From: an uncultured Anaeroplasmatales bacterium
GTDB taxonomy: Bacteria; Bacillota_I; Bacilli_A; Acholeplasmatales; JAEDCM01
Direction of reading: 5' to 3'
DNA length: 64,000 nucleotides
NCBI GenBank assembly: GCA_964634685.1
Contig: CAZWLD010000003.1
Location: 784 to 64,783 of the forward strand
Below the pieces are notes generated by a model. It was given only the letters and a program-made list of their open reading frames with translations, searched no databases and was not told where the DNA came from. Below, piece after piece: positions 9,295 through 61,056 of this stretch. The position numbers and the translations under genes are program-made. Within the stretch, counting starts at the first letter, position 1. The number at the start of each line of letters is the position of its first letter.

Positions 9295-9565
9295 AAAAAC
9301 TCGCCCCTAATATAAGGACGAGTGTATCTCGTGTTACCACCTTACTTTATTATTATCCTTGCGAATAATAATCTCACTAGCTACTATCATAGCATATCGC
9401 TTTAACGGGCGAACTCGTTATACCCTAATCATATTGACTCGAATATACAACTCCAAGGCCATGTTCAATTAGCTTTCCTATGCTTGCTTTCACCTTTCCA
9501 AGCTCTCTAAAATAGTATTTCTAATTTACTCTTCTCTTCAACGTCTTTAATTGGTTTATTAAATT
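9295..9565 (-). ncRNA. T-box riboswitch, Met specifier
   Basis: Minus strand: stem I AG-bulge/GGTGAAAGC, specifier GAAC-ATG-GCC (ATG at 9462-9460), T-box AAGGTGGTAACACG (9343-9330), then terminator hairpin 9323-9299 and U-run. Confidence 0.88.
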
Positions 9566-9773: not shown

Positions 9774-12700
9774 TTAGTTTGCTTTTTTAAATTTCACAAA
9801 TACTAATGCAGCACCACCAGCAATAGTTAATACCATAAATACAATTGATACAACCATACATACTTGAGCAGTATTAGCTTTGGCAGTAGCGGCTTTTAAT
9901 GCAGCCTCGGCAGCAGCTTGGGCAGCTTCAGCCTTAGCTTGAGCATCAGTTGCAGCAGCTTTATCAGCATCAGTAGCATTTTGAGAAGCTTCAGCAGCAT
10001 TCTTAGCAGCAAGAGCAGCATCCTTTAATGTATTAGCTTCATTGCGAGCAACCTCAGCAGCAGCTTGAGCAGCAAGAGCTTGAGTTCTTAAGCTTTCCGC
10101 ATCAGCCTTGGCAGCCTCGGCAGCAGTTTGAGCAGCAAGAGCTTGAGCTTTTAGAGTTTCTGCTTCATTCTTGGCAGCAAGAGCAGCAGCCTTTAATACA
10201 GCAACCTCTTCTTTTGTTGCAGTAGCACTTGCTAAAGCAGCTTCAGCAGCAGCTTGGGCAGTTTCAGCAGCTGTTTGAGCTTCTTCAGCAGCAGTTTGAG
10301 CGGCAACAGCTTTGGCTTGAGCCTCTTCAGCGGCTGTTTGAGCGGCAGCAGCTTGAGCTTTTAAGGTTTCTGCTTCAGTCTTGGCAGCTTCAGCAGCTTC
10401 TTGAGCAGCTTCGGCAGCAGCTTGGGCAGCAAGAGCAGCAGTTTTGGCTTCTTCAGCAGCAGCTTTTTCAGCTTGAGCTTCAGCTAAAACACCTAATACA
10501 GTAATATAATTCTCCGCAAATTCAAGATAATGAATATTCGTAATTGATGCTTTTTGGGTTTCAGTTAATGATTCATAATGAGCACGAATAGTCGCAACTA
10601 CTTCTTTATCAGCTAAAGTAAGAGATGTGTAATCCTTGCATGAATTAACTTCCTCTTGAACCTTTGCAATATCTAAATCCTCACCATCATAAACAACTAA
10701 TTCGTCTGGAGCAAATGTACCAGCAGGGAATTGTCCGGCTAAAACGTCAGTAAAGTCTGCCATCCAATGAGCTCCAACCTCATAGTTTTGAGGAAGGTTA
10801 GTATTAAAATCTTTGACATAATCGGTTGTTAATACATCTTTGGATACGAATAAATCATATGATGGATTAGTCTTAAGATCTTTTAACATTACAAATTTAA
10901 CATTTCCAATTGATTTAGTTTCTTCTGATGGACTTACAAATTCAGTTGTGCTATTTGTGAATGTTGTATATGCTAAATATCCGTTTTCAGTGAATGTACC
11001 ACCAACTAAAACTGGAACGGCATCACCTTTACAAACTACATAACGTAAATTTGGACAATTATTGAAGGCATTTTCACCAATACGCTTTAAGCTTGCAGGT
11101 AAAGTAACTGAACCAAGTGTTTCATTTCCAGCAAAGACACCATTTGCAATCGCAACAACACCATCTGGGATAACAACATTTCCACCTTCACCATTGTAAG
11201 CTGTTAAAACATTTGAAGCGTTAACAACAAATTCAGGAGCACCTGGATCTGGAGTACCTTCTGCTGTTGTAACATTTACTGTGTTTTGATTTAACGCATA
11301 TGAAGTAGGTTCAGCTTCGGCACCAATCTCAATAACATAATCGTTTTCATTGAATGCATAATCAACGAATCCTAGATAGAATCCACCATTTGCGGCAGCA
11401 TCATCATAAATATCAGTAATATCAATCTTTTGAGTTACTACTTGATTCTTTTCAGTAGCTGTACTTGCAACATCAAAATATGAATTGAATTCAGCATCAT
11501 AAAGGCAAATTGCTTGAACATAGTAATTATCCCAATATGTTACTTCTAAATAATATTTATCACCCTCTTGGGTAATCTTGTGATCTAACATTGTTGATAA
11601 TTCTTGGTCAACAACGATATCAATGCTTTGAGAATCAGAATAAGTAAGACCATCTGATCCAGTCCACTCTGCATCCATAACAACTTCGAATTCCATATTA
11701 TTCTTCATATAATCTGGTAAAAATTTATTCATATTGGCATAGAAATTACTATATGTATATGAGTTAAAAGCACTATATTGTGGTAAGAAATATGATTGTC
11801 GTAAGAAATAATTATAATCGAAAGGTGATAAATTCTCTCCTGTTACCTTATCATAAACACTAAATTCTTGATAATCAACATTCTTTAGCATTGAGAATTG
11901 ATATGAATATATTCCATAGAAGGTTCCAAAATTGCTATTTTGATTTACAGCACCATTAATGACGAAGGTACCATCAAATGGAGCAGGCTCATATCCTTTC
12001 TTGAAATTGAAAACCTCTTCAGCAAAAGTTGATTGATCTATCGTATAGAATTTACCATTTTGAAGGAATAATGAAGTAACAGTTAATCCATCTTTACTAA
12101 TGAAATCTTGACCAAAATCCATTACCTCTTCCCATGGAGCAATATCAAAGGCTGGGCTTGCATCATAATCACCATAGAAGGCAAGGAATGGAACACTTAA
12201 TGTTACATCACCAGTTAATGAAACAAATCCTTCAATATATGTACCATATTTGAAGATGAAATCATATGATTCCTTATCCTCATCACTAAGGGTTACTGTT
12301 ACTGTTACCTTAGCAGTACCATTAGCATTAACAGTGACAACTGAACCAGCTAAAGATCCAGCACCAGCTACGCTATATTCAACTAATGAATCAGATAAAA
12401 CACAATCAAATTCCTCTAATGACACGCCATAGTTAGTATCTAATCCCATAACTAATGTCGAAATATCAAAGCTTGCAGCATTAGCTTCATCCATATTAAC
12501 TAGGTTGAAGGTCATTTCATAAACACCAGTTTTAGAAGCATCCTTTCCAAGCTCTAGCTTAACACGGTCAGTTCCATCAACAGTGATATATTGCTTTGTT
12601 GTTGTCGCAGCTGCTAGGTTAACTAAACCAGCACCTTGTTTACGTGGTGAATAAACATTACCATCTTCATTAGCAACAACAGTAGCTGTACCCATTAATA

Positions 12701-14765
12701 ATTGATATGTTAATGTGTTTGCCGCAACAGGATCAACTACACCTAAGACTTCACGAACATATTGCTTAACAACAACAGTTGAACCGGCAGTATTAGGAGA
12801 AGCCATTGAGGTACCACTCATTAATACATACTTATTACTTTCAGCATCAGCATATGGATATGAACTCCAGACTTCTCCACCAGGAGCGGTAATTTCTGGT
12901 TTTAATTTAAGGTTAACATCACCCCAAGATGAGAAGATTGACATATCAGGGATTGTTTTTTGATTAGCAGGATCAACAGTTAATGTTTTTGTATCTGCAG
13001 CTGCTAAAGCATCTCCATATTCCTTTGTAACGGCACAAATAGGGAATGTAGCAAGCCTAGAATATTCAGTAACAACATTTCCTTCTTCATCAGTAACATC
13101 GATTGCTTCTGCTACAGGGCTTAGTGCACCAGCTGCATTGTTATAAATTACACAAGCGATAGCTCCAGCATTTAAAGCATTGAAAGCTTTATCTTGGAAA
13201 GAAAGTGATCCACGTTGAACTAAGGCAATTTTTCCTGTAACATCAACAGCAGCAAATTCTTCGGCTGAACCAAGACCACAATCAACATATTCATAAGTTC
13301 CTTTACCATTGGCATTACAGAAATCACGCATAAAGTCACCATAAACATTGTTAGTTTGGTCTTTTACAGACTCATTATAATACATTTCAGTTCCATCAGC
13401 GCTAACTAGCTTATATGCTGCAACATTTAAGGTATCAATACTTGCGACTGTAAGTGATGCTGGATAACTACTTGGAGAACCGATTGAACCGATATTATAG
13501 CCACTAGTTGTACCATAGTTTCCATACATACCACCATATGAAGAGCTATATGAGTTTCCTGCTGAAACACATAAAGCGATACCTTGAGCTACAGTAGCCT
13601 CATAAATAGCATCAATTGGTGTAAATGTATCAGTATCATAATCTACCATTGGCTCATAGAAGCTAAATCCAGATGCTGAACCTAAGCTCATATTGATAGT
13701 ATCAACACCAAGCAAAGTTGCATCCTCAATAGCAGCTAAGATATCAACGGTAGCCGCACCATTGTCGTTATCAGAGAAAACCTTGAAAATAGCTAATTGC
13801 GCATCCTTAGCAATACCAAAGAAATCAACACCGTTGTTTCCGGCAACAGTACCAGCAACGTGAGTTCCGTGACCATTTCCAAATTCCTCTAATGTTTCAA
13901 AGCATGGAGTTACATTGCAATCATTATCAGCATAGTCGAAGGCATAAGCAACCTTATTACCAACAACAACATCAGCAACAGCAAGAGTTCTTGCTTCTTC
14001 TCCTTCGCCAACAGTTTCATATCTTTCCTTAGCATTTAAACTAGCAAGAACAGCTTCAACATCAGAAGATGTAAGAGCAGGTGTTCCTGTATAGAATTCA
14101 TCACTGAAGGCCTCATGATCAACCATTAATCCGGTATCAATGATAGCCGCAACCATACCTGAACCAGTATATTCAAGATCGGTACCATTCATCTCACCAC
14201 GACCAGTGCTTGTACCATTTGCATCGTAGGATACAACATCACTAGCATCAAGGCTATAGATTTGAGATAGATAGACACCTTCAACTCCACTAATCTTGGA
14301 AATTGACTTGATATCCTTAACTTTAACAGTCATTGCAAAACCGTTAAATAAATTTGTATAAGAATACTTATATTCAGGCTTATAGGCTAAACCTAATTTA
14401 TTAATTGAATTTTTAACCTTTGTTTGAGTTGCTAATATTTCACCAACGGCCTTAACGCCATCAGTTGTATTAACATATTCAGACAATTTTTTGTTTACTG
14501 ATACCTTTGAAACCAAAGCGTCACCTTTTGTTTTAACAATTACATCAACAAAAGAATCTTCATCAAGCTCAACGATATCATCATCGGCAACAACACTAGC
14601 ATTTAAAAGATTCGCAAAGATATCTCTTTCCTTGTCTCTTTCAACTTGAGTGGCTGTCGAAGCGATTGTTTTAACATTTTTCGCAAGAACACCAGTTGTC
14701 GCTAAGGTCATAACACCAAGAGCAACTGCTGTCAATGCGGTTGTTAATTTTTTCAAAACTTTCAT
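9774..14765 (-). CDS. Cell-surface S8 serine proteinase (lactocepin/C5a-peptidase-like) with PA domain, short BspA-LRR insert, Ala-rich coiled-coil stalk and C-terminal TM anchor
   Basis: Signal peptide; triad IIDTG / HGTHVAGT / GTSMASP; PA insert (GKIALVQRG); IPDGVVAIANGVF LRR; about 200 aa of A/E/Q/K heptads; hydrophobic C-tail ending KFKKAN. Confidence 0.9.
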   Translation of the reverse strand: MKVLKKLTTALTAVALGVMTLATTGVLAKNVKTIASTATQVERDKERDIFANLLNASVVADDDIVELDEDSFVDVIVKTKGDALVSKVSVNKKLSEYVNTTDGVKAVGEILATQTKVKNSINKLGLAYKPEYKYSYTNLFNGFAMTVKVKDIKSISKISGVEGVYLSQIYSLDASDVVSYDANGTSTGRGEMNGTDLEYTGSGMVAAIIDTGLMVDHEAFSDEFYTGTPALTSSDVEAVLASLNAKERYETVGEGEEARTLAVADVVVGNKVAYAFDYADNDCNVTPCFETLEEFGNGHGTHVAGTVAGNNGVDFFGIAKDAQLAIFKVFSDNDNGAATVDILAAIEDATLLGVDTINMSLGSASGFSFYEPMVDYDTDTFTPIDAIYEATVAQGIALCVSAGNSYSSSYGGMYGNYGTTSGYNIGSIGSPSSYPASLTVASIDTLNVAAYKLVSADGTEMYYNESVKDQTNNVYGDFMRDFCNANGKGTYEYVDCGLGSAEEFAAVDVTGKIALVQRGSLSFQDKAFNALNAGAIACVIYNNAAGALSPVAEAIDVTDEEGNVVTEYSRLATFPICAVTKEYGDALAAADTKTLTVDPANQKTIPDMSIFSSWGDVNLKLKPEITAPGGEVWSSYPYADAESNKYVLMSGTSMASPNTAGSTVVVKQYVREVLGVVDPVAANTLTYQLLMGTATVVANEDGNVYSPRKQGAGLVNLAAATTTKQYITVDGTDRVKLELGKDASKTGVYEMTFNLVNMDEANAASFDISTLVMGLDTNYGVSLEEFDCVLSDSLVEYSVAGAGSLAGSVVTVNANGTAKVTVTVTLSDEDKESYDFIFKYGTYIEGFVSLTGDVTLSVPFLAFYGDYDASPAFDIAPWEEVMDFGQDFISKDGLTVTSLFLQNGKFYTIDQSTFAEEVFNFKKGYEPAPFDGTFVINGAVNQNSNFGTFYGIYSYQFSMLKNVDYQEFSVYDKVTGENLSPFDYNYFLRQSYFLPQYSAFNSYTYSNFYANMNKFLPDYMKNNMEFEVVMDAEWTGSDGLTYSDSQSIDIVVDQELSTMLDHKITQEGDKYYLEVTYWDNYYVQAICLYDAEFNSYFDVASTATEKNQVVTQKIDITDIYDDAAANGGFYLGFVDYAFNENDYVIEIGAEAEPTSYALNQNTVNVTTAEGTPDPGAPEFVVNASNVLTAYNGEGGNVVIPDGVVAIANGVFAGNETLGSVTLPASLKRIGENAFNNCPNLRYVVCKGDAVPVLVGGTFTENGYLAYTTFTNSTTEFVSPSEETKSIGNVKFVMLKDLKTNPSYDLFVSKDVLTTDYVKDFNTNLPQNYEVGAHWMADFTDVLAGQFPAGTFAPDELVVYDGEDLDIAKVQEEVNSCKDYTSLTLADKEVVATIRAHYESLTETQKASITNIHYLEFAENYITVLGVLAEAQAEKAAAEEAKTAALAAQAAAEAAQEAAEAAKTEAETLKAQAAAAQTAAEEAQAKAVAAQTAAEEAQTAAETAQAAAEAALASATATKEEVAVLKAAALAAKNEAETLKAQALAAQTAAEAAKADAESLRTQALAAQAAAEVARNEANTLKDAALAAKNAAEASQNATDADKAAATDAQAKAEAAQAAAEAALKAATAKANTAQVCMVVSIVFMVLTIAGGAALVFVKFKKAN

Positions 14766-27351: not shown

Positions 27352-29157
27352 ATGCCTTTTTTACCAATGACAATCGCGGAAATCAAAGACCTTGGATGGG
27401 ACATGCCTGATTTCATCTATATTACAGGCGATGCCTATATCGATCATCCAAGCTTTGGTCCAGCAATTATTACGCGCGTTTTAGAAAATTTTGGCTATAA
27501 ATGTGCCATTATTAGTCAACCCGACATCAATAACGATGATGATTTTACAAAATTAGGAAAGCCAAGGCTTGCCTTTTTAGTGTCGAGCGGTAATATCGAT
27601 TCGATGGTTAATCATTATTCTGTTTCTTTAAAAAGACGAAAAAAAGACTTTTATACCCCTAATGGTGAAATGGGAAAACGTCCCGACCGAGCCGTAATCA
27701 AATACTGCAATAAGCTAAGAGATCTTTATCCTGATAGTGATATTATCATTGGCGGAATTGAGGCCTCCTTGCGAAGACTTGCCCATTATGATTATTGGGA
27801 TAATAAGGTCCGAAAATCGATTTTAATTGATTCAAAGGCGGATTTATTATTATATGGAATGGGTGAAAAAACAATTGTTAGTGTTGCGGATTGCCTTTCG
27901 GGTGGTCTAAGAGCCAAGGATATTATCTTCATTCGTAATTCTGTTTATAAAACTAATGATAAAGATTATTTACCAAGTGATGGTATCTATCTTCCAAGCT
28001 TCAAGGAAACCAAAACGGATAAGCTAAAATATGTTAAATCCTTCCAAATCCAATATGAAAATACCGATTGTTTCCACAGTAAGCCCTTGATTGAGGAATA
28101 TGATGATTGCTATATCGTTCAAAATCAACCCGAATTTCCCTTGTCACAGGAGGAAATGGATATGACCTATGCTCTTCCCTATATGCGAGCAGTCCATCCT
28201 TCTATTGAAGCGAAGGGACATGTTCCGGCTATCGATGAGGTTAAATTTTCCATTATCGCCAATCGTGGTTGCTTTGGTGGCTGTCACTTCTGCGCCTTAA
28301 CCTTCCATCAAGGACGAATCATTCAATCAAGATCGAAGGAATCGATCGTAGAGGAAGCCAAATTATTAACCGAGGATAAAGACTTTAAAGGCTATATTCA
28401 TGATATTGGTGGCCCAACCGCAAATTTCTATAATCCGGCTTGTAAAAAACAGCTTAAGCATGGAATCTGTACAAATAAAAGCTGTCTTGGCTATAATCCT
28501 TGTAAAAATTTAGAGGTAAGCCACGAGCAATATCTAGATATTTTAAAGGAAGTGCGCAATCTCCCGAAAATCAAAAAGGTTTTTATTAGGTCTGGTCTTC
28601 GCTATGACTATATTATGTATGATAAAAACAAAGAATTTTTTGAGGAATTAGTCAAAAATCATATTTCTGGTCAATTGAAGGTAGCGCCGGAGCATATTGA
28701 TGATCGCGTTTTAGTTCGGATGGGCAAGCCCTCCCGCGAGCTCTATGATGAATTTGTTAAAACCTATCACGAGATTAATCAAAAATTCCATAAGGATCAA
28801 TATCTTGTGCCTTATTTAATGAGCAGTCACCCCGGATCAACCTTAGACTGCGCCATCAATTTAGCTTGTTATTTAAAGGAGACTGGTTATATTCCCGAAC
28901 AGGTCCAGGATTTTTATCCAACCCCGGGTACCGCTTCAACCTGCATGTACTATACGGGAATTGATCCCTTTACAATGGAAAAAGTTTATGTGCCCAAAAA
29001 TCCTCACGAAAAAGCGATGCAAAGAGCCCTCATTCAATTCAATAATCCAAGAAACTACGATTTAGTTTACGAAGCTTTACAAAAAGCCAACCGAATGGAT
29101 TTAGTTGGCTATGGGAAGCATTGCTTAATTCCACCACGAAAACCATCAAATAAATAA
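27352..29157 (+). CDS. ygiQ: YgiQ/UPF0313 radical SAM protein
   Basis: [12 protein letters not shown]-terminus, CFGGCHFC motif, and [12 protein letters not shown]. Confidence 0.92.
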
Positions 29158-29182
29158 CCCCAGTCTAACAAACTGGGGTTTT
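29156..29182 (+). terminator. Rho-independent terminator
   Basis: AACCCCAGT / ACTGGGGTT stem followed by Ts. Confidence 0.75.
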
Positions 29183-29297
29183 ACTTATCAAAAATAATAA
29201 AGCATATCACTTAATTATTTTAAGCCAATTAGATATATGATTATTCATTCCAATATTCTTGGTAGCTTCCCAATAAAATAGGAATCTATTCTTCCAT

Positions 29298-30140
29298 TTA
29301 TTTTATGTTTTTTAATAACATCTCAGGCGTTATATCTTCTAATTTAGAAATAGTAAATCTTTTCTTTCCTATACTATTAAAGGAAGTTCCCATAGTGTAG
29401 GTTGTATTATCAATAATGATATACCTATCATGAAATACATCAGTATGAAATACTATAATATTATTTTTCACTTCACATTTATTTAAATATGAAGTTGAAG
29501 ATGTATATATAGAAACCGGAACGGTAATATTGACTAGCATATCAAGCAAAAACTGATCTGCATAATTATCAATTATTACAATTTGTTCCTTTGCCAAAAA
29601 GAATAACTTAATTAAAAAGGAATATGGCTTTAATATTTCCCCTTCAAATACAATTATGTTATTATCCGCATATATAGTTTGTTCAATATTCTTTATTCTG
29701 TTTTCAATATTAATATAATTAGCTTCTAATCTAAGAATATTTGATTGATAAGCTAATATTCTGTCATTGTTTATAGCATAGCCATTTAAAAGGTATTGCT
29801 TAAGAACACAATTAGCCCATTTTCTAAATAATATCCCCCTTTTGGATTTTACTCTATAACCAACGGAAATAATCATATCTAAATTATAGATTTTTGTCTT
29901 ATATTTTTTACCATCAGACGCAGTAATCGAGTATTCCTCGATAACTGAGTTATCCAACTCATTATCTGTGATTATGTTTTTAATATGAAGACTAATGTTA
30001 TCTACAGATACATTAAACAATTGAGACATTTGTTTTTGAGTTAACCAAACTGTATCTTCCTCAGGTGAAACATTTACATCCAAAGTAAAATCACCATCCT
30101 CAAATTTTATTAATTCATAAGTTTTCTTTTGATTATTCAA
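29298..30140 (-). CDS. RhuM-family protein with C-terminal PLD-like domain
   Basis: TVWLTQKQMSQLF and YNLDMIISVGYRVKS (RhuM); HDRYIIID...GTSFN (PLD-like); TTG start after GGAGG. Confidence 0.8.
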   Translation of the reverse strand: MNNQKKTYELIKFEDGDFTLDVNVSPEEDTVWLTQKQMSQLFNVSVDNISLHIKNIITDNELDNSVIEEYSITASDGKKYKTKIYNLDMIISVGYRVKSKRGILFRKWANCVLKQYLLNGYAINNDRILAYQSNILRLEANYINIENRIKNIEQTIYADNNIIVFEGEILKPYSFLIKLFFLAKEQIVIIDNYADQFLLDMLVNITVPVSIYTSSTSYLNKCEVKNNIIVFHTDVFHDRYIIIDNTTYTMGTSFNSIGKKRFTISKLEDITPEMLLKNIK

Positions 30141-30162
30141 TATTGATTCCTCCTATTTTTAT

Positions 30163-30300
30163 CAAAAAGATAAGGTCATCTGCGTTTTGCAAATGACCTT
30201 GAAAAGTATTATATTAAGTTGTAAAATTAATTGAATTATTAACACAACTTCCACCAACCTTATATACATCAATTATATCAGATTTTATATTATTTGAGAA
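30163..30300 (-). promoter_or_regulatory. Promoter plus structured leader/attenuator of the RhuM gene
   Basis: TTCTCA (30300-30295), 17 nt, TG-A-TATAAT (30277-30272); hairpin 30250-30216; 12-bp hairpin 30200-30172 followed by ATCTTTTT. Confidence 0.55.
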
Positions 30301-30327
30301 TAATAAAATTAAATATGCCAATTTTCA

Positions 30328-30756
30328 TGTTACAGTTCAGTCGTGAAAGAATCGAAAAACGAGAATTAATTAAGACCTAAAAAAATATTTTCAATGAAAA
30401 TGCATCTTTTTTAGACTTTTTTTCAATTTTCTTTGAGAAAAAATGTTTTTCGATAATTTATGTACCTTTTTCTGGAGCTTGAGGGGATTTACATTATGAT
30501 ATTATATGTAATATAATAAACTTAGAAATAACCAAGAAGGTGCTTCATATGGCTACTAATTACGTTAAGCTTCGCGAAAAACAAATGGATAAATTAATTG
30601 AACAAAATGAATATCTCTGTGATTGGATCCATAAAAATATATTATTAGGCCGGTCTGTCCTATCAAAATAAAATCCAACGGATTATTTGCACATCATTTG
30701 CGTGAAATTATTCCGTTGGATTTATTTTTTTACCTAATCACGACTGAACTGTAACA
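30328..30756. mobile_element. MITE-like non-autonomous element or invertible segment, 429 bp
   Basis: Perfect 19-bp terminal inverted repeats TGTTACAGTTCAGTCGTGA (30328-30346 and 30738-30756); TCA on both flanks as a possible 3-bp TSD; no transposase inside. Confidence 0.7.
30549..30671 (+). CDS. 40-aa cargo ORF inside the IR element (MATNYVKLREKQMDKLIEQNEYLCDWIHKNILLGRSVLSK)
   Basis: Translated by hand; AAGGTG RBS 6 nt upstream, TTTACA-18-TATAAT promoter, terminator right after the stop. Confidence 0.55.
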   Translation: MATNYVKLREKQMDKLIEQNEYLCDWIHKNILLGRSVLSK

Positions 30757-30760
30757 TCAT

Positions 30761-31213
30761 TTATTTTAAATTAACCTGCTTTAAGGCTTTTTTCATTCTT
30801 CTGTTCATATCCTTTTCCTTTAAGGCGTCACGTTTATCATGAAGCTTTTTACCCCGACAAACGCCAACCTCGAGCTTGCATAAGCCTTGATTTAAATAAA
30901 TCTTCAAAGGAATCAAGGTTAAGCCATCTCTTTCAACATAGCCTCCAAGCTTAAGGATTTCCTTTTTATGTAATAAAAGCTTTCTTTCTCTCGTTTCCTC
31001 ATGATTATGAATATTTCCTTGGGCAAATTTCGCAATATTCATATTGATGACAAAGGCTTCACCATTTTTAATTCGAACATACGAATCGTTAATATTAACC
31101 TTTCCTAAACGAATTGATTTAATTTCGGTTCCGGTCAAAACTAAACCACATTCGTATTTATCCTCAATAAAATATTCAAACCCGACCTTTTTGTTTTGAG
31201 CGATGATTTTCAT
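30761..31213 (-). CDS. smpB: SsrA-binding protein
   Basis: IAQNKK...ECGLVLTGTEIKSIR...RKLLLHKKEI...GKKLHDKR. Confidence 0.96.
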   Translation of the reverse strand: MKIIAQNKKVGFEYFIEDKYECGLVLTGTEIKSIRLGKVNINDSYVRIKNGEAFVINMNIAKFAQGNIHNHEETRERKLLLHKKEILKLGGYVERDGLTLIPLKIYLNQGLCKLEVGVCRGKKLHDKRDALKEKDMNRRMKKALKQVNLK

Positions 31214-33341
31214 GTTTCCCCCCCTTTTTCTTTTTTCCCTTAACATGGTTATCTATACTTTTTACCAAACCAAAATCAATTGTTTTTGCGGCTTTACTTG
31301 CATTTGTAACCTTAACCTTAACGCGATCACCTAATTGGAAATAGCGTCTGCTAATTTCACCAATAATAATCATTCTTTGTTCATCAAAGGAATAATAATC
31401 AAAATCAATTTTGCTAATGTGGATTAAGCCTTCAACGCCATTAGGTAATTCCACAAACATTCCAAAATTAGTTAGTGATGAGATTATTCCCTCAAATACT
31501 TCACCAATATGTCCCTCCATATATTCCGCTGCCTTCATCGAAATAACATCCCGCTCACAATCAACAGCGGTTTTTTCACATTGGGACGTATATAAGGCAA
31601 ATTCCGGCAAATGGTTAATCCAATAATTAATATTTTCTTGATTTGTTTTCTTTTCAAACAAAAATTCATGAAGCATTCGATGAACAAGAGTATCTGGATA
31701 TCGTCTAATTGGCGAGGTAAAATGCGTATAATATTTTAAAGCTAAGCCATAATGGCCTAAGCATTCCTCACTGTAGCGCGCCTTCATCATTGATCTAAGC
31801 ATTAAAATATTGATTCCTTCGGCTCCTGGCTTTCCCTCTAAGGATAAAAGTAAGCTTTGGCAATCATGCGGCGTAATCTCATCGCTTAAAAAGCCAGCCT
31901 TATAGCCCATATTTTTGATAACATTCAAAACTGCATTGATTTTCTTTTTATCTGGAGCTTCGTGAACACGATAAATAAATGGCAAATTCATTTGATTTAT
32001 CGTTCTTGCGACCGTTTCATTAGCCATTAGCATAAATTCTTCAATAATGCCTTCCGCAACGCCCCGCGGCTTGATATATATTTCTAAAGGATAACCCTTT
32101 TCATCAACCTTAAATTTCGGTTCCTTGGTTTCAAAATCAATAGCACCTCTTAGGTAACGTGCATCCGATAGAATCGAAGCTAAATCCGCCATATCATCGA
32201 AGAAGCTCTTTAAATATTGGTAGCGAGCTACCATAATTTCATCATTATCTAAGATCGCATTAACAGCCGTATATGTCATTCGTTCATTCGAATTAATGAC
32301 ACTCGGGAAAATATGCGAATTAACAACATGACCATTTTGATCAATTTCCATTTCACAAGCAATTACTAAACGATCAACATGTGGATTAAGTGAACAAATA
32401 CCGTTACATAAACGCTCTGGAAGCATTGGAATAACGCGATCAACTAAATAAACAGATGTTCCTCGCAAATAAGCCTCTTGGTCAATTTTGGAGTCTCTTT
32501 TAACATAATGACTAACATCCGCAATATAAACGCCTAAAAAGAAATTGCCATTATCGAGCCTTTTTACGCTTACAGCATCATCTAAATCCTTAGCGTCCTC
32601 GCCATCAATTGTCACAACCGTATAATCTCTTCTGTCAATTCTTCCTTCGATTTCACTTTCATCAATCGTATCACTAATCGAGGCTGCCTCTTGATACACC
32701 TCATCACTAAACTTTGTCTCTAAATCATATTTATAGCAAACGGATAAGATGTCAATTCCTGGATCATTAATTGAACCCAAAATTTTCGTAACGGTCGCAT
32801 AAACATAATTAGGTCCATATTCGCTGATAAAGGCCTTTACCTTATGATCATTCATTGCGCCTAATGAATCTTCATCCTTAACTAAGATGTTAAATTTATC
32901 ATTTGGATTATCACTAATAATCAAATTGAAGCCTTGTCCACGCTTAAAGGTTCCAACAATCGTATGAGCTCCCCGCTCAATGATCCTGATGACATCGCCC
33001 TCACTCCTGAGCTCATCATCATATTCATAACAAACCTGCACTAAAACAATATCACCCGAAAAAGCGCCATTAACATTATTTTTGGGAATAAAAACATCAT
33101 CATGTCCTTCAATGGTCACAAAGCCATAGCCTTTATCCTTTACTTGGATTTGTCCTCGAAAAATATTATAAAGGCTTGGCTTACAATAGAAATTTTTCTT
33201 TTTTAATAAATACCCCTCTTCAACTAATTGATCAAGAGCCTTTTTTAAACCCTCTTGTTCACCAACAATATTTAAAAAGGCATTATATTGAAGCATTGTA
33301 AAGCTTTGATCATTAATGATTTCCATTATTTTTTCTTTCAC
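31176..33341 (-). CDS. rnr: Ribonuclease R
   Basis: RNB motif TIDGEDAKDLDDA, YTHFTSPIRRYPD, C-terminal S1 domain; secG-rnr-smpB synteny. Confidence 0.95.
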   Translation of the reverse strand: MKEKIMEIINDQSFTMLQYNAFLNIVGEQEGLKKALDQLVEEGYLLKKKNFYCKPSLYNIFRGQIQVKDKGYGFVTIEGHDDVFIPKNNVNGAFSGDIVLVQVCYEYDDELRSEGDVIRIIERGAHTIVGTFKRGQGFNLIISDNPNDKFNILVKDEDSLGAMNDHKVKAFISEYGPNYVYATVTKILGSINDPGIDILSVCYKYDLETKFSDEVYQEAASISDTIDESEIEGRIDRRDYTVVTIDGEDAKDLDDAVSVKRLDNGNFFLGVYIADVSHYVKRDSKIDQEAYLRGTSVYLVDRVIPMLPERLCNGICSLNPHVDRLVIACEMEIDQNGHVVNSHIFPSVINSNERMTYTAVNAILDNDEIMVARYQYLKSFFDDMADLASILSDARYLRGAIDFETKEPKFKVDEKGYPLEIYIKPRGVAEGIIEEFMLMANETVARTINQMNLPFIYRVHEAPDKKKINAVLNVIKNMGYKAGFLSDEITPHDCQSLLLSLEGKPGAEGINILMLRSMMKARYSEECLGHYGLALKYYTHFTSPIRRYPDTLVHRMLHEFLFEKKTNQENINYWINHLPEFALYTSQCEKTAVDCERDVISMKAAEYMEGHIGEVFEGIISSLTNFGMFVELPNGVEGLIHISKIDFDYYSFDEQRMIIIGEISRRYFQLGDRVKVKVTNASKAAKTIDFGLVKSIDNHVKGKKKKGGKHENHRSKQKGRV

Positions 33342-40654: not shown

Positions 40655-43600
40655 CTATCCTAGAATTTGTTCTTTTGTTTTTGCATAAACAACATTAGCA
40701 TTAATTTGATTAACAACATTTACGCTTGTTGATGTGATGTTTCCAACTTGAGCGCTTGTCATTCCACCGGTAATGGTATTAATAGTCGTGATTTCACCAG
40801 TCGATCCATTATATTCAAATACTGACCAAAGACAGCCATTACCGCTTGGCGCATCAAATTCTTGAACTAAGGCTCCATTAATGTATAATGCAACATGAGC
40901 ATCAGAGGTTGAAATTCCATTTGAAGTTGTACTTCCACCATGGGTATAATCATAAACACTATAGCGATAGATTCCTTCTTGAAGTTCAAGAACTGTAATA
41001 ACCTCAGGGCCAAAGCTTGTTGTATCATCAATATCTAAATTTGTTCCTGTAGTTGGATCAACCTTGTTATAGTAATAAATATGATATGAATCAGTGCCAT
41101 TTGTATATGTCATATGTGAATCTAAATCCTTTGGATTTTCTCCCCATGTTAACACTACAATCATTTCACGGTCACTAAATTGATCAAGGATATCCATTTC
41201 AAGACTATTTAAGATAATTTCTTCATCACCATCAACTTCAATCTCAATTTGTTTTGAATAGCTACCGCTCGTAACATTTAAAACGTATGTTTCATTTGGA
41301 ATATTTTCAAAGCCAGCGCCGTAATATGTGCTAAGACCGCTATATAAAACATTACCAAATTCATCATTTAAGGTTGCTACGACCTCTAATCTTTCATTAT
41401 CACTGCCTAAAACTGTTACTCTTACAAGGTTTCCATCAACAAATCGAATTTCATAGCTACCAGCATTGTTATTCCAATTTGTTGCCTTTGTAATAGCATT
41501 CCATTCGGTTTCTAATCCGCGGAAGTAAATTAATTCAAGATTACTTGCCCCTGAGATAACATTGTCCCCAATGTTTTCCAAAGAAGCTGGTAAAGATATT
41601 TCTTTGATAGTTGTCAAATTACTAAATGCACCATATAAAACATCGGTTGCTCCTGAAATAATTTCAATTCTTTCTAAACCTGAAGGAATATAATAAGTTA
41701 CTGATTGTGTATCTGTGTATGATTGACTAACGGCAACACTTCCTGTATATGAGGTTTTACCAAAGATTACGCCAAATAATGTTGCGGCAGTTGGTGTAAT
41801 TGAATAACCATCAATTCCAACAAATGGCAATGAAATCTTTGTAACAGAACTACAGCCTTTAAACATTCCTTCTGCTAAAACCATTACCGTTGATGGAACT
41901 CTAATTTCATTAGCGTTACTACAATTTACAAAGGCATTAGATCCGATGGTCATTAAGCCTTCCTTCATAATGATTTCTTCAAGTGAAGAACAATTATAGA
42001 AGGCATATTCTGCGATTGTTAACACATTTCCAGGAATATCAAATTCCTTCAATGCAGTACAATTATAGAAAGCATAATCAGCAATTGTTTTGACTCCATC
42101 TCCACCTGTTACATATTGTAAGCTTGTACAATTATAGAACATTTTTGTTCCTATTAGACTTAAGCTATTTCCTAGATGGATACTTACTAATCCAGATCCT
42201 TCAAACACATTATTTCCAACATTCGTAATTGAATCAGGAATTGTTATACTCTTAATTGCTTTACAATTATAGAAGGCATAATCTCCTAAAGTAAGAAGAT
42301 TTTCATTTAAAATCACATTTTCAAGCTTTGTACAGCCATAGAAGGTGTATGCTCCAATTGCGGTTAGAGTTGAAGGAATTTCAATTCTTTCAAGTGATGT
42401 ACAGCCTCTAAAAGCACTAGCACCTAAATCAGTAATTTCTCCTAATTCAATATAGGTTAATTTTGTACAACCGTAGAAGGCTTCAGCGCCAATAATTTGA
42501 GCGGTTGAAATTGATAATCCTGTCAAAGCTGTACAATTTTTAAATGCACCAGTACCAATTGATTTAACATTACCAAGGGTTACATTGGCTAATTTATTAC
42601 AGCCTAAGAATACATAATTTCCTAGCTTTTCAATTCCTGAACCAATTTCTACTGATGCTAAAGAAGTACATCCATTAAATGCATAATCTCCAAGAGCAGT
42701 AATACCATTTCCAATTCTTATTCCTGTTAAGGAAGCACACTTAGCAAAAGCATAATTTCCAATTGTTTTAAGTGAATCAGCTATTCTAACTGAGGTAATC
42801 TTTGTATTATAGAACGCATATTGACCAATGCTTTCAATACTACTACCAAATTTAATTCCAGATAAATTTGTACAACCATAGAAAGCTCTATTCGCAATAC
42901 TTTGAACATTATCAGGTATTACAATTTGTGTGAAATTAGTACAACCTTCAAAGGCACTTTCACCAATACTTAATAATCCATTAGATAATGTTATCGATGA
43001 TATACCTGTACAACCATAGAAAGCATTTGCGCCGATCGTTGTTACATATTCTGGTAAAGTAAGACCAGTTAACTTCGAACATTTATAGAAAGCATATGTT
43101 CCAATTGTATTCAATTTTGAGCCAAAAGTAACAGTTCCTAAATTTGAACAGCCATTAAACGCATAATCTCCAATCGTTTTAAGGTTTTCGCCCAAACTAA
43201 CAGTAACTAAACCACTACAATTATTGAATGCGTAGCTACCTAATGTTGTGACACTATCGGGAATTGTAAATGAGGTTAAACCAGTGCATCCATCAAATGC
43301 ATAGGAACCGATACTTGTAATTTCGCCTCTACATTCAACTGTTCTTAAATTTGATAATCCACTAAACATACTATTAGGTATTGAAGTAATTCCACTACCC
43401 AAAACAATAGTTTCTAAACCGCTACATCCTCTTAATGCAGTTGAATCAATTGATGTAACACTATCAGGAATAACTAAATTAATAATATTTTTACAATTCA
43501 TAAATGCTCGTTCTCCTATACTTGTAATTGAATCAGAGAAGGATAAACTTGATAAATTTGTACAACCATCAAATGCATAGCTTGAAATTTTCGTAGGACC

Positions 43601-46600
43601 CACAACACTAATATTTGTTAAATTTGAGCAATTTTGGAACAAGTAGTCTGACATCGTTCCGTTTCCTGTTAAATTAACAATTCTTAAAGAAGATGGTACA
43701 TAATAAGTTGTATAATTCTGCACAGTGGATGTACCACCAGTATAGCTAGTTGTACCAAAAATATATCCAAAAGTATTCCCATTTAAAAGTGACAACGGTA
43801 ATGATAATTCATTTAAACTTGTGCATCCTTTGAGAGCTCCACTTATTTCACTACTAGTTGCGCCAACATACTTAACACTTTCAGGAATAATGATTTTTGT
43901 CAAGTAAGAACAATCTCTAAATGCATCAGAATAATATATTTGATTTGTTGTATCCTTTAATTCAAATGCTCCGGTATTATCTGTTGGTTTACCAAAATAT
44001 ATTTTGTTATTAATTAAATAATCATCCACAATTAAATTACTTGAAATTAATGTATCAACAATAACATCATTATTGTCTCCTATATATCCCAAAAGAGTAT
44101 CTTCACTTATATGTATTTCTATTAAATTTACACATCCATTAAATGCAGATGAACCAATATAGTTTACACTAGTTGGGATTTCCATGCTTATTCCTTTATA
44201 TCCACTAAATGCATATTCTCCTATGCTTGTTATTGTTGGATTATCCCATACTATATCACAAGTACAATTATAGAATACATATTCTCCTATGCTTGTTACA
44301 CTAGTTGGGATTTCTATACTTGTTAAACCGCTACAACCTTCAAATGCATAGTTTCCAATACTCGTTACACTTGAAGGAATTGTTATACTTGCTAATCCAC
44401 TACAATCATAGAATGCATGATCTCCTATACTTGTACAGCCTTCTAATATTTTTACTGTTTTCAAGCAGCTTGGAACATAATCCGCATTACGAAAAGAGCT
44501 GCTAGCACCAAATATATATCCTAAATATGATTCGTAGAAACCATTTCCGATAAATGGTAAAGTAATACTTTCCAAACTACAGCCACTAAATGCACTAATT
44601 CCTATTTCTGTTACACTTGATGGAATTACAATGCTTGTTAAACTACTACAATTCCTAAAAGCATAGTTTCCTATACTTTTTACGCTTGTTGGGATATCTA
44701 TGCTTGTTAATCCACTACAACCACTAAATGCACATTCTCCTATGCTTGTTACGCTTGTTGGGATTTCCATACTTATTCCTTTATATCCACTAAATGCATA
44801 TTCTCCTATATTTGTTATTGTTGGATTATCCCATACTATATCGCAAGTACAATTATAGAATGCACATTCTCCTATGCTTGTTACATTCTCTGAAACAGTA
44901 ATATTTACTAAATCACTACAATTATAGAACGAACCATACAATAAACTTCCTCCTAATACTGTTACACTAGTTAATGTTGATGGTATGTAATAAGTATCAG
45001 TTCTTGTACTTAAACCATAGTAATATTGTTCTGTGGCAACTCCTCCATCATAACTAATAGTACCAAATATATATCCAAATGGATATTGATAAGTGTCACT
45101 TGATGTTTTTATTCTTTCACCTATAAATGGTAATGTTATTGAAACTAAGCTACTACAACCACTAAATGCATATTCTCCTATGCTTGTTACGCTTGATGGG
45201 ATATCTATACTTGCTAAGCCACTACAACCTTTAAATGCATAATTTCCTATCCTTGTTACGCTTGATGGAATGTCCACACTGGTCAATCCTGTACAATTAT
45301 AGAATGCATAATTTCCTATGCTTGTTACGCTTGTTGGGATTTCCATACTTATTCCTTTATATCCACTAAATGCATATTCTCCTATACTTGTTATTGTTGG
45401 ATTATCCCATACTATATCGCAAGTACAATTTTTAAATGCATATATTCCTATGCTTGTTACACTAGTTGGGATATCTATGCTTGTTAATCCACTACAACCA
45501 CTAAATGCATATTCTCCTATACTTGCTACACTTGAAGAAATTACTACGGTTGATAAGTTACTACAACCACTGAATGAATACCCCTCTATACTTGTTACGC
45601 TATTTGGGATTTCTATGCTTGTTATACTACTACAACCACTAAATGCATATTCTCCTATGCTTGTTACACTAGTTGGGATATCTATTCTTGTTAATCCACT
45701 ACAACCACTAAATGCATATTTTCCTATGTTTGTTACGCTTGATGGAATGTCCACACTGGTCAATCCTATACAATTATAGAATGCATAATTTCCTATGCTT
45801 GTTACATTCTCTGAAACAGTAATATTTACTAAATCACTACAATTATAGAACGAACCATACAATAAACTTCCTCCTAATACTGTTACACTAGTTAATGTTG
45901 ATGGTATGTAGTATGTTCCAGATGTTATGCTACTAGTACTTGAACCATAGTAATATTGTTCTGTGGCAACTCCTCCATCATAACTAAAAGTACCAAATAT
46001 ATATCCAAATGGATATTGATAAATGTCACTTGATGTTTTTATTCTTTCACCTATAAATGGTAATGTTATTGAAACTAAGTTACTACAACCAATAAAGGCT
46101 GATTTTCCTATGCTTGTGACTCTTGTTGGAATTTCTATATTTGATAAATTACTGCAATATGCAAATGCATAATTTCCTATCCTTGTTACGCTTGATGGAA
46201 TTGTTATACTTGCTAATCCACTACAACCATAGAATGTATGATCTCCTATGCTTGTTACACTTGTTGGAATATCTATGCTTGTTAATCCACTACAACCTTC
46301 AAATGCAGAATTTCCTATGCTTGTTACACTTGATGGAATATCTATGCTTGTTAATCCACTACAACCTTTAAATGCGTAATTTCCTATGCTTGTTACATTA
46401 TCTGAAACAGTAATATTTACTAAATCACTACAATTATAGAACGAACCATACAATAAACTTCCTCCTAATACTGTTACACTAGTTAATGTTGATGGTATGT
46501 AATAAGTACTACTTTCTCTACTTGTTGTACTTGAACCATAGTAATATTGTTCTGTGGCAACTCCTCCATCATACCTAATAGCACCAAATATATATCCAAA

Positions 46601-48337
46601 TGGATATTGATAAGTGTCACTTGATGTTTTTATGCTGTCGCCTATAAATGGTAATGTTATTGAAACTAAGCTACTACAACCACTAAAGGCTGATTTTCCT
46701 ATGCTTGTTACACTAGTTGGGATTTCTATACTTGTTAAACCGCTACAACCTTCAAATGCATAGTTTCCAATACTCGTTACACTTGAAGGAATTGTTATAC
46801 TTGCTAATCCACTACAACCACTAAATGCTGATTCTCCTATACTTGTACAGCCTTCTAATATCTTTACTGTTTTCAAACCACTTGGAACATATTCATTCTT
46901 AAATGCAGATCCATACGGACCAAATATATATCCTAAATATGATTTGCCGGAACCATTTCCGATAAATGGTAAAGTAATACTTTTTACTCCACTACAACCA
47001 CTAAGTGCATATTCTCCTATACTTGTTACGCTATTTGGGATTTCTATGCTTGTTAAACTAGTACAATCAGCGAATGCATATACTCCTATACTTGTTACGC
47101 TATTTGGAATTTCTATGCTTGTTATACTACTACAACCACTAAATGCATGATTTCCTATACTAGTACAGCCTTCTAATATCTTTACTGTTTTCAAACCACT
47201 TGGAACACATTCACTATTAAGTCCAGTTCCAGACGAACCAAATATATATCCTAAATATGATTTGCCGGAACCATTTCCGATAAATGGTAAAGTAATACTT
47301 TCTAAACTACTACAACCATAGAATGCATGATCTCCTATACTTGTTACGCTATTTGGGATTTCTATGCTTGTTATACTTCTACAACCACTAAATGCATATT
47401 CTCCTATACTTGCTACACTTGAAGAAATTACTACGGTTGATAAGTTACTACAACCACTGAATGAATACCCCTCTATACTTGTTACGCTATTTGGGATTTC
47501 TATGTTTATTAACTTACTACAGTTATAGAATACATATTCTCCTATACTAGTTACACTTGATGGGATTTCTATACTTGTTAAACTACTACAATTATAGAAT
47601 GAATACCCCTCTATACTTGTAACTCCCTCAGGGATTGTTATACTTGTCAATGAACTACAATTTTTAAATGCCAACCTTTCTATGCTTGCTACACTTGAAG
47701 AAATTACTACGGTTGATAAGTTACTACAACCAGAAAATGCACCTTCTCCTATGCTTGTAACGCTTGATGGAATTTCTATACTTGTTAAACTAGTACAATC
47801 AGCGAATGCAAAACCTCCTATTTTTGTTATGCTAGTTGGAATAGTTATACTTATTAAGTTACTATAATCAACGAATGCAGAACGTCTAATTTCAGAAACA
47901 GGTAGTCCATGTACAGTAGATACTATGTTGAGAGAAAAACTAGCTTCATTCCATAAATTACATCCCACTACAACATAATAACTACTGTCTGCACTTAATG
48001 TATACCACACATTATCTATAAGCACACTATCACTATTGTTAGATTTTTCATATCCACAAACAGCACAAACACCATCCTCAAATTGATGTTTCTCTGAATC
48101 TTTGATTTCATTTACATGCTCGCAAGTTGCCGCATGCCAATGATAGACATCATTATAACTCCATTCACTCGAGTAGCTATGTGAATGAGTTGTCTGATTG
48201 TTATTAGTTGTCTGATCATTATTAGTATCAACAGGATAATCCGGTCTCACTGCTGTACCGCATGATGTTAATAAAAATGACACACTAATCATTAACATCA
48301 AAAGACAAATAATTGATAATCTTTTCCCTCTCCTCAT
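40655..48337 (-). CDS. 2560-aa BspA-type (LRR_5) surface lipoprotein with C-terminal YfaP/DUF2135-like domain
   Basis: LLTSC lipobox; His/Cys motif HWHAATCEH...CAVCG; dozens of IPxSVTSIGxxAFxxCxxL repeats; C-terminal VLTWGENPKDLDSH...DDTTSFGPE. Confidence 0.9.
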   Translation of the reverse strand: MRRGKRLSIICLLMLMISVSFLLTSCGTAVRPDYPVDTNNDQTTNNNQTTHSHSYSSEWSYNDVYHWHAATCEHVNEIKDSEKHQFEDGVCAVCGYEKSNNSDSVLIDNVWYTLSADSSYYVVVGCNLWNEASFSLNIVSTVHGLPVSEIRRSAFVDYSNLISITIPTSITKIGGFAFADCTSLTSIEIPSSVTSIGEGAFSGCSNLSTVVISSSVASIERLAFKNCSSLTSITIPEGVTSIEGYSFYNCSSLTSIEIPSSVTSIGEYVFYNCSKLINIEIPNSVTSIEGYSFSGCSNLSTVVISSSVASIGEYAFSGCRSITSIEIPNSVTSIGDHAFYGCSSLESITLPFIGNGSGKSYLGYIFGSSGTGLNSECVPSGLKTVKILEGCTSIGNHAFSGCSSITSIEIPNSVTSIGVYAFADCTSLTSIEIPNSVTSIGEYALSGCSGVKSITLPFIGNGSGKSYLGYIFGPYGSAFKNEYVPSGLKTVKILEGCTSIGESAFSGCSGLASITIPSSVTSIGNYAFEGCSGLTSIEIPTSVTSIGKSAFSGCSSLVSITLPFIGDSIKTSSDTYQYPFGYIFGAIRYDGGVATEQYYYGSSTTSRESSTYYIPSTLTSVTVLGGSLLYGSFYNCSDLVNITVSDNVTSIGNYAFKGCSGLTSIDIPSSVTSIGNSAFEGCSGLTSIDIPTSVTSIGDHTFYGCSGLASITIPSSVTRIGNYAFAYCSNLSNIEIPTRVTSIGKSAFIGCSNLVSITLPFIGERIKTSSDIYQYPFGYIFGTFSYDGGVATEQYYYGSSTSSITSGTYYIPSTLTSVTVLGGSLLYGSFYNCSDLVNITVSENVTSIGNYAFYNCIGLTSVDIPSSVTNIGKYAFSGCSGLTRIDIPTSVTSIGEYAFSGCSSITSIEIPNSVTSIEGYSFSGCSNLSTVVISSSVASIGEYAFSGCSGLTSIDIPTSVTSIGIYAFKNCTCDIVWDNPTITSIGEYAFSGYKGISMEIPTSVTSIGNYAFYNCTGLTSVDIPSSVTRIGNYAFKGCSGLASIDIPSSVTSIGEYAFSGCSSLVSITLPFIGERIKTSSDTYQYPFGYIFGTISYDGGVATEQYYYGLSTRTDTYYIPSTLTSVTVLGGSLLYGSFYNCSDLVNITVSENVTSIGECAFYNCTCDIVWDNPTITNIGEYAFSGYKGISMEIPTSVTSIGECAFSGCSGLTSIDIPTSVKSIGNYAFRNCSSLTSIVIPSSVTEIGISAFSGCSLESITLPFIGNGFYESYLGYIFGASSSFRNADYVPSCLKTVKILEGCTSIGDHAFYDCSGLASITIPSSVTSIGNYAFEGCSGLTSIEIPTSVTSIGEYVFYNCTCDIVWDNPTITSIGEYAFSGYKGISMEIPTSVNYIGSSAFNGCVNLIEIHISEDTLLGYIGDNNDVIVDTLISSNLIVDDYLINNKIYFGKPTDNTGAFELKDTTNQIYYSDAFRDCSYLTKIIIPESVKYVGATSSEISGALKGCTSLNELSLPLSLLNGNTFGYIFGTTSYTGGTSTVQNYTTYYVPSSLRIVNLTGNGTMSDYLFQNCSNLTNISVVGPTKISSYAFDGCTNLSSLSFSDSITSIGERAFMNCKNIINLVIPDSVTSIDSTALRGCSGLETIVLGSGITSIPNSMFSGLSNLRTVECRGEITSIGSYAFDGCTGLTSFTIPDSVTTLGSYAFNNCSGLVTVSLGENLKTIGDYAFNGCSNLGTVTFGSKLNTIGTYAFYKCSKLTGLTLPEYVTTIGANAFYGCTGISSITLSNGLLSIGESAFEGCTNFTQIVIPDNVQSIANRAFYGCTNLSGIKFGSSIESIGQYAFYNTKITSVRIADSLKTIGNYAFAKCASLTGIRIGNGITALGDYAFNGCTSLASVEIGSGIEKLGNYVFLGCNKLANVTLGNVKSIGTGAFKNCTALTGLSISTAQIIGAEAFYGCTKLTYIELGEITDLGASAFRGCTSLERIEIPSTLTAIGAYTFYGCTKLENVILNENLLTLGDYAFYNCKAIKSITIPDSITNVGNNVFEGSGLVSIHLGNSLSLIGTKMFYNCTSLQYVTGGDGVKTIADYAFYNCTALKEFDIPGNVLTIAEYAFYNCSSLEEIIMKEGLMTIGSNAFVNCSNANEIRVPSTVMVLAEGMFKGCSSVTKISLPFVGIDGYSITPTAATLFGVIFGKTSYTGSVAVSQSYTDTQSVTYYIPSGLERIEIISGATDVLYGAFSNLTTIKEISLPASLENIGDNVISGASNLELIYFRGLETEWNAITKATNWNNNAGSYEIRFVDGNLVRVTVLGSDNERLEVVATLNDEFGNVLYSGLSTYYGAGFENIPNETYVLNVTSGSYSKQIEIEVDGDEEIILNSLEMDILDQFSDREMIVVLTWGENPKDLDSHMTYTNGTDSYHIYYYNKVDPTTGTNLDIDDTTSFGPEVITVLELQEGIYRYSVYDYTHGGSTTSNGISTSDAHVALYINGALVQEFDAPSGNGCLWSVFEYNGSTGEITTINTITGGMTSAQVGNITSTSVNVVNQINANVVYAKTKEQILG
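44890..46501. repeat. Three DNA-identical 100-bp blocks within larger repeated LRR modules
   Basis: CTGAAACAGT...GATGGTATGTA is identical at 44890-44989, 45811-45910 and 46402-46501. Confidence 0.9.
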
Positions 48338-60835: not shown

Positions 60836-61050
60836 TATAAAAAAAAGACATCCTTATATATAAGGACGTCATTAACGCGGTACCACCTTAGTTCTAGAAT
60901 AAATCTAGCTCTTGAATCTTTAACGCAGACCTACGGATTTCCATTTCTGGTTCTACTCCATGGGAGTAATTATAAAACAGTATATAGCAGCTTCCACCAT
61001 CTCTGCCTCGCTTGATATCTTCATCTTATAATCATATCCACTTCATCGTA
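60836..61050 (-). ncRNA. T-box riboswitch, Thr specifier
   Basis: AAGGTGGTACCGCG (60889-60876), terminator 60870-60838, AGTAGA-ACC-AG with ACC at 60951-60949. Confidence 0.88.
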
Positions 61051-61056
61051 CAATTT

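Follow-up and report, generated by a model that had tools for sequence, protein, structure and literature searches.

The ISBst12 group of ISs is described as single-ORF. MITEs and mobile insertion cassettes (MICs), exemplified by the Correia elements and by the IS231-derived MICs of Bacillus cereus, are short, carry IS-type terminal repeats without a transposase, and contain promoter or terminator signals able to affect neighboring genes; numerous dispersed copies, with target duplications, are what define such families. Invertible promoter switches, such as fimS and the flgB and cwpV switches of Clostridioides difficile, consist of short inverted repeats around a segment of a few hundred base pairs that contains a promoter-like site. 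The locus described here has likenesses to each of these systems.

The window (the whole 64-kb stretch of DNA that was analyzed, from an uncultured Anaeroplasmatales bacterium) contains an inverted-repeat element directly after smpB. With the ISBst12-group ISs, namely, ISDge4 and four uncharacterized full-length copies of gut-metagenome and IMG/VR origin (L046 to L049) discussed below, the element has in common ends of the form GT(T/A)AC(T/A)G(T/C)TCA, a hairpin at the right end, and a long leader followed by a short ORF, but it has no transposase and no 8-bp duplication, it measures 427 bp versus ~2.25 kb, and its interior is not detectably similar to that of the sampled members. Relative to MITEs and MICs, the element is single copy and lacks a duplication (that is, it looks like a fossil and not like a family). 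In contrast to invertible promoter switches, it is seen in a single orientation, has no recombinase recognized nearby, is predicted to terminate transcription internally, and has repeats that derive from an IS. Taken together, we estimate a probability of about 0.7 that this element is an internally deleted, transposase-less derivative of an ISBst12-like IS of the IS66 family and that it is now an immobile relic. Because it has no DDE_Tnp_IS66 transposase gene, we file it as a derivative and not as an IS. The features of the region, in order of position, are the following.

29156 to 29255, unstranded: far boundary of the variable cassette, ~75 nt common to the LRR allele and then a bidirectional terminator
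29296 to 30312, minus strand: rhuM-like module, abutting the left end of the element
30140 to 29298, minus strand: gene of the rhuM-like module
30200 to 30172, minus strand: leader hairpin of the rhuM-like module
30300 to 30272, minus strand: extended -10 promoter of the rhuM-like module
30329 to 30346, plus strand: left terminal inverted repeat, GTTACAGTTCAGTCGTGA; the perfect repeat runs 2 nt outward to 30327
30347 to 30487, plus strand: AT-rich noncoding leader from the left end to the promoter, with no ORF of at least 30 aa
30488 to 30517, plus strand: promoter-like site TTTACA-18-TATAAT (11 of 12 matches), overlapped by TTACAT...ATGTAA
30536 to 30542, plus strand: RBS GAAGGTG, 6 nt upstream of the ATG at 30549
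30549 to 30671, plus strand: 40-aa ORF from the ATG at 30549 to the stop; an alternative GTG start at 30540 would give 43 aa
30665 to 30729, unstranded: imperfect hairpin found by repeat search and folding, with 28-nt arms, 82% complementary, and T-runs on both strands
30738 to 30755, minus strand: right terminal inverted repeat; the perfect repeat runs outward to 30757
30761 to 31213, minus strand: smpB (Pfam SmpB, PF01668)

Identity of the terminal repeats

An earlier note on this DNA, made from the sequence alone, had reported an inverted-repeat element just after smpB, and this element is real. A repeat search of the window places the arms at 30327 to 30346 and 30738 to 30757; they are 20 nt long (19 had been claimed), are 100% complementary, and have 391 nt between them. 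No other spaced perfect inverted repeat in the 64 kb is as long as 16 nt, and a 20-nt repeat was reached in none of 100 first-order Markov simulations of the window, the largest being 17 nt. When up to 3 mismatches are allowed, the 19-mer TGTTACAGTTCAGTCGTGA has two sites in the window, both of which are the arms, whereas 100 shuffles predict 0.

To which family, if any, do these arms belong? Exact searches with the 19-mer gave two matches in the JGI metagenomes (L024 and L025) and one among 185,579 species genomes. The species-genome match is due to chance, as is the match in L024, which sits within a GC-rich coding region. A 19-mer search alone gives a few chance matches in collections this large, and since two of the three matching loci are of this kind, the family argument depends on the context of the third. 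There, and likewise in L026 and L027, the 19-mer (20 nt when the next inner base of the left arm is included) lies 84 nt 3' of the stop codon of a transposase remnant, and in all three contigs the end beside the remnant is identical to the right end of the window element. The remnant is a transposase C terminus, which covers positions 327 to 384 of the 387 positions of NCBIfam transpos_IS66 (E of 3e-8).

An exhaustive HMMER search with the remnant as the query gave 542 relatives, of which many are short fragments. The similarity of L044 (76% identical) and L045 (52%) to L027 passes the hairpin and stops at ...TGAAC(A/T)GTAAC; because relatives of the remnant elsewhere lose similarity exactly there, we take the L027-type match to be a true IS terminus. 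A profile search of IMG/VR then added the four full-length copies, L046 to L049, which have GTTACTGTTCA(G/C)A.. at both ends, 2,238 to 2,272 bp apart. Perfect 8-bp target duplications flank three of the four (AATATTGA in L046, GTCAACCG in L047, and TAAATGGA in L049), and eight other termini of the clade begin GTTAC(T/A)(G/A)TTCA. Positions 1 to 5 and 7 to 12 of the window end match those of L046 to L048. ISDge4, of the ISBst12 group, has ends GTAACTGCTCAGCA and GTGACTACTCAGCA with an 8-bp direct repeat (PMC12898284). Given that the end adjoining the remnant is identical to that of the window and that the ends of L046 to L049 and of ISDge4 are alike, these sequence comparisons identify the arms GTTACAGTTCAGTCGTGA as the ends of an ISBst12-like clade within the IS66 family. 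More generally, the ends define a poorly described, gut-associated clade of ISBst12-like elements of ~2.25 kb, with GTTACTGTTCA ends, 8-bp duplications, and a short upstream ORF.

Because the arms match the ends of this clade, the true element runs from 30329 (GTTAC) to 30755 (GTAAC), a length of 427 bp, and the outer AT of each arm belongs to the flank. The smpB stop codon lies 4 bp from the TGT...ACA end and 5 nt from the IS-type end. This identification also corrects the family assignment made earlier, which had been to IS3/IS30-type elements with TG...CA ends and duplications of 2 to 4 bp; the ends begin GTTAC, and the duplication of the family is 8 bp. The trinucleotide TCA is indeed present on both flanks (30325 to 30327 and 30757 to 30759), but its reading as a 3-bp duplication fails, since 3 bases is not the duplication length of the family, and one base of each copy belongs to a palindromic extension of the repeat. 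The 8 nt on either side, ATTTTCAT and ATCATTTA, differ, and thus there is no 8-bp target duplication at the window element.

When the remnant and protein P0059 were used in tblastn searches of plasmids, only distant matches were returned, 26 to 44% identical, in Bacillus, cyanobacteria, and Deinococcus. One plasmid match, L032, was set aside because it is nested in other ISs and offers no usable ends. Nesting is also seen at the metagenomic remnants, where a canonical three-ORF IS66 with ends GTAAACGG lies within the ISBst12-like transposase (L026, 875 to 3600; L027, 70 to 2810). The same three-ORF IS66 is present in L025 (13380 to 13695) in the opposite orientation, ~70 nt away. These nested copies suggest repeated insertion of IS66 into an older ISBst12-like element.

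Interior of the element and its descent

All of the parts that had been listed inside the arms (the TTTACA-18-TATAAT site, the RBS, the 40-aa ORF, and the bidirectional hairpin) are present. By consensus matching, TTTACA-18-TATAAT is the best predicted promoter-like site in 29000 to 32000, an interval in which the number of such sites is not above that of shuffles (16 versus 18.6). We gave no weight to the overlapping TTACAT/ATGTAA "operator," as its arms are just 6 nt and the DNA is AT-rich. The element contains no ORF longer than 43 aa. AlphaFold predicts that the product of the 40-aa ORF forms one long helix (residues 2 to 41; pLDDT of 89.4), and a ribbon-helix-helix autorepressor was rejected on the basis of this single helix. 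The peptide has no homologs beyond its own cluster among 5.8 billion proteins and no match in Pfam or NCBIfam. A resemblance of its N terminus, MATNY..KQ, to MATDY....KQ in a clade transposase (P0092) is unsupported; the best phmmer hit (E of 0.03) is an unrelated fragment.

The hairpin at 30665 to 30729 is absent from the list of a simple terminator scan; when folded on the smpB strand, it has a z-score of -2.9, and 0 of 200 shuffles fold as well. Rfam searches, of the window at the gathering score and of 29100 to 30900 at an E of ≤1, place no RNA family in the element, and blastn of the element against plasmids and phages gave nothing. Among strains, the small ORF is nearly invariant (one D-to-H change, together with a change of the upstream GTG to ATG in L004 and L031), in a strain sample too small to show selection on it. 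The differences between strains cluster in the leader at ~30445 to 30456, where SNPs and indels are found among L004, L031, and L011.

The clade has a recurrent layout: a left end, a leader of 200 to 310 nt, a short upstream ORF, a transposase of 556 to 584 aa, a hairpin, 9 to ~30 nt, and the right end. Short upstream ORFs of 54 to 63 aa are found in L045 (142 to 333), L046 (1290 to 1454, overlapping the transposase frame), and L048 (IS coordinates 296 to 469); those of L046 and L048 start ~300 to 310 nt from the left end. The upstream ORF of L049 is longer (102 aa) and starts ~200 nt from the left end. Judged by eye, the upstream ORFs of the clade look like heptad-repeat helices. A strong hairpin lies inside the right end in L027, L044, L045, L046, L048, and L049, as it does in the window, with a gap to the right end of 9 to ~30 nt in the family members, whose sequences were read by eye. 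For the window element, these distances are 220 nt from the left end to the start of the ORF and 8 nt from the end of the hairpin to the right end.

How far can this shared architecture be taken? The sampled clade transposases are just 41 to 54% identical to one another, and their short ORFs are also unalike; with relatives this distant, the likeness in architecture could be partly coincidental. The interior of the window element has no significant similarity by blastn to the sampled clade ISs, and the 40-aa peptide has none to transposases or to the short ORF of L045. We infer that the leader and accessory ORF of the IS itself gave rise to the promoter and the 40-aa ORF, and because the interior lacks similarity to the sampled ISs, this proposal rests on position and predicted structure. 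In the model that we favor, an internal deletion would have removed only the transposase gene from a parent ISBst12-like IS, and the product would have kept both terminal repeats, the 5' leader with its promoter, the short helical ORF, and the right-end hairpin. An intact parent IS with exactly these ends was not found in the searches described above; its 3' remnant alone is known. The unit that had been interpreted as a "cargo" peptide or RNA probably fits better as the leader, short upstream ORF, and 3' hairpin of the parent IS. As for the intact members of the clade, the short upstream ORF of ISBst12-like copies may be an unrecognized accessory ORF or a frameshift-fused N-terminal segment.

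The smpB/radical-SAM interval

Exact-protein look-ups with SmpB variants retrieved ~35 gut-metagenome contigs, which carry three alleles of the region. In the "empty" allele, the smpB stop codon (TAG) is followed by 5 nt and then by a bidirectional terminator common to the convergent radical-SAM gene, and this terminator corresponds to 29156 to 29180 in the window. Allele B (L006 and L007) has an LRR_5 lipoprotein cassette between smpB and the radical-SAM gene. Allele A (the window, L001, L002, L004, L011 to L013, and L031) has the inverted-repeat element plus the rhuM-like gene. From comparison of window positions 29156 to 30760 with L005, L006, L014 to L023, and L034 to L043, the smpB/radical-SAM interval is a strain-variable cassette site with at least three alleles.

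On the smpB side, alleles A and B have the same sequence as far as the end of TAAATGAT, so that the base before GTTAC is the last one in common. They also share ~75 nt on the far side, and a stretch of allele A seems to be left over from the LRR gene (the final 20 to 50 nt of its 3' end). The rhuM module, at 87% identity, occurs in two other contexts without the element (L028 to L030 and L033), which means that the element and rhuM are separable; at the smpB locus itself, rhuM without the element was seen in none of the ~35 loci. The flank opposite smpB turns homologous to the element-free rhuM module within ~25 nt. By both flank comparisons, the element sits precisely where two blocks of different ancestry meet. 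We infer that this junction between the rhuM module and the smpB locus was formed with the participation of the relic or of its parent. The mismatched flanks would fit a rearrangement at the element ends: copies of the element may have recombined, a deletion may have occurred next to it, or rhuM may have been brought in by an end-mediated joining. Two further repeats, a possible imperfect direct repeat (AAAATAAATG) with one copy at each of the smpB and rhuM ends and an inverted repeat of 11 nt (AAATAAATGAT/ATCATTTATTT) on either side of the LRR cassette, were judged too weak in DNA of 33% GC to carry weight.

The rhuM module has several features of its own. Its leader, conserved over ~125 nt (window 30141 to 30312, minus strand; L028, 1134 to 1310; L033, 166 to 340), has a terminator-like hairpin directly before the RBS, a layout that could be that of an attenuator or riboregulator. 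The 280-aa protein (29298 to 30140, minus strand) matches Pfam Virulence_RhuM over residues 65 to 152 only, and weak matches link its C-terminal part to the PLD active-site motif and to the VPA1262 N-terminal domain (E of 3e-7). The protein may thus have two domains and be of a defense or nuclease type.

What does the element do at present? Read on the smpB strand, the hairpin has UUUUAUUUU after it, ~30 nt beyond the stop codon, and in allele A it takes the place of the terminator that smpB and the radical-SAM gene have in common in "empty" strains. Because the hairpin folds better than 200 of 200 shuffles and replaces this shared terminator, it probably terminates smpB transcription, in agreement with what had been proposed from the sequence. 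With T-runs on both strands, the hairpin likely terminates transcription of the small ORF (plus strand) as well as that of smpB (minus strand). The relic would possibly also express the 40-aa coiled-coil-like peptide, as an incidental effect. In this way, a housekeeping gene can come to use a terminator that derives from IS debris. The window has the gene order secG-rnr-smpB, and ssrA is not beside smpB in this organism; neither a tmRNA (ssrA) gene nor a tRNA gene is present in the 64 kb (ARAGORN, with Rfam for tmRNA).

Mobility, rival readings, and other features of the window

The element could in principle be an active MITE or mobile insertion cassette whose cargo, an unrelated peptide or small RNA, is moved by a cognate transposase elsewhere in the genome. 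Several observations would suit this reading: the ends are perfect, identical, and unchanged in strains with interior differences of 2 to 3%; the interior has no detectable similarity to sampled ISs; the ORF has good predicted expression signals; and the element is placed in a variable hot spot. We nevertheless regard such activity as unlikely. The 8-bp duplication is missing; the window has a single copy; in three large collections, exact searches produced no further true copy, with the species genomes giving one chance match, the JGI metagenomes giving one chance match and one IS remnant, and IMG/VR giving 0; the GTDB species representatives are without any copy of the end; and a precise empty site was found at none of the ~35 related smpB loci, all of which are empty, have the LRR cassette, or have the relic with rhuM. 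The absence of copies is judged here from exact-match searches and from the 64-kb window. In agreement with the earlier note, no transposase or recombinase was recognized in the window: tblastn queries with two IS66-family transposases gave no hit in it, and 38 further ORFs of at least 110 aa that were scanned against Pfam (E of ≤1e-8; the 2,560-aa ORF at 40655 to 48337 was left out) include neither. The lack of a target duplication in particular makes immobility the most likely state of the element, which would thus be a relic as opposed to an active MITE, and the claim that it mobilizes a cargo is not borne out by the copy searches, the empty-site comparison, or the flanks. What survives of the MITE label is structural: the element is MITE-like because its repeats are transposon ends and a transposase is absent, but its copy number, missing target duplication, and apparent immobility do not fit the term. 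Somewhat less probable still is that the relic has been co-opted by the host, with a peptide of host or defense function and with the hairpin as the smpB terminator, or that it marks the capture of rhuM into the smpB hot spot mediated by IS66-type ends. Were the co-opted reading true, the promoter, the 40-aa gene, and the hairpin would be kept by function, for example, with the divergent rhuM-like gene.

The remaining two readings leave transposition aside. An invertible switch, in which a site-specific recombinase flips the 391-bp segment and so turns the direction of the promoter and terminator, could account for a 20-nt perfect inverted repeat enclosing a promoter-like site, and two Logan contigs from different samples (L001 and L002) break off at an identical position within the element, a hint of a branch in the assembly graph. 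We consider it very improbable, and the earlier suggestion of an invertible segment is unsupported. The repeats are already accounted for as IS termini. One orientation is seen in all eight assemblies, of which three span the element (the window, L004, and L031) and five enter it from smpB (L001, L002, L011, L012, and L013). The Logan break lies 89 nt inside the repeat and not at the repeat; Pfam recombinases were absent from the scanned ORFs of the 64-kb window, although an invertase could be encoded elsewhere in the genome; and the predicted transcript from the promoter ends at the hairpin within the segment, and thus flipping would not redirect transcription outward. That an ordinary small gene merely acquired an inverted repeat locally, by chance or as a regulatory palindrome with no link to mobile DNA, strikes us as the most far-fetched proposal. 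It would agree with a single-copy, self-contained gene that has no duplication, but the 20-nt repeat was beyond the reach of all 100 simulated windows, and the repeat is identical to an IS end and fits the clade motif. The two Logan contigs (SRR6824180 and SRR6824197) end at window position 30649, just past the hairpin, and this common end may be an assembly-graph branch that arises from strain variation.

On the reading that we favor, that of a decayed derivative of an ISBst12-like IS, the implications are chiefly for annotation. A transposase-less IS leftover is an ordinary kind of genomic fossil, and a feature that resembles a cargo MITE or a phase switch would here be a decayed IS66-family element. 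Such a reading brings no change to the current understanding of transposition or gene regulation.

Elsewhere in the window, two T-box leaders score above the Rfam gathering score (9311 to 9550 and 60859 to 61055, minus strand), the latter upstream of a threonyl-tRNA synthetase-like gene at 58919 to 60820. There are several very large surface-type ORFs: a BspA-type LRR_5 protein of 950 aa (61102 to 63954), a 1,663-aa subtilase with PA and LRR_5 domains (9774 to 14765), and the ORF of 2,560 aa (40655 to 48337).
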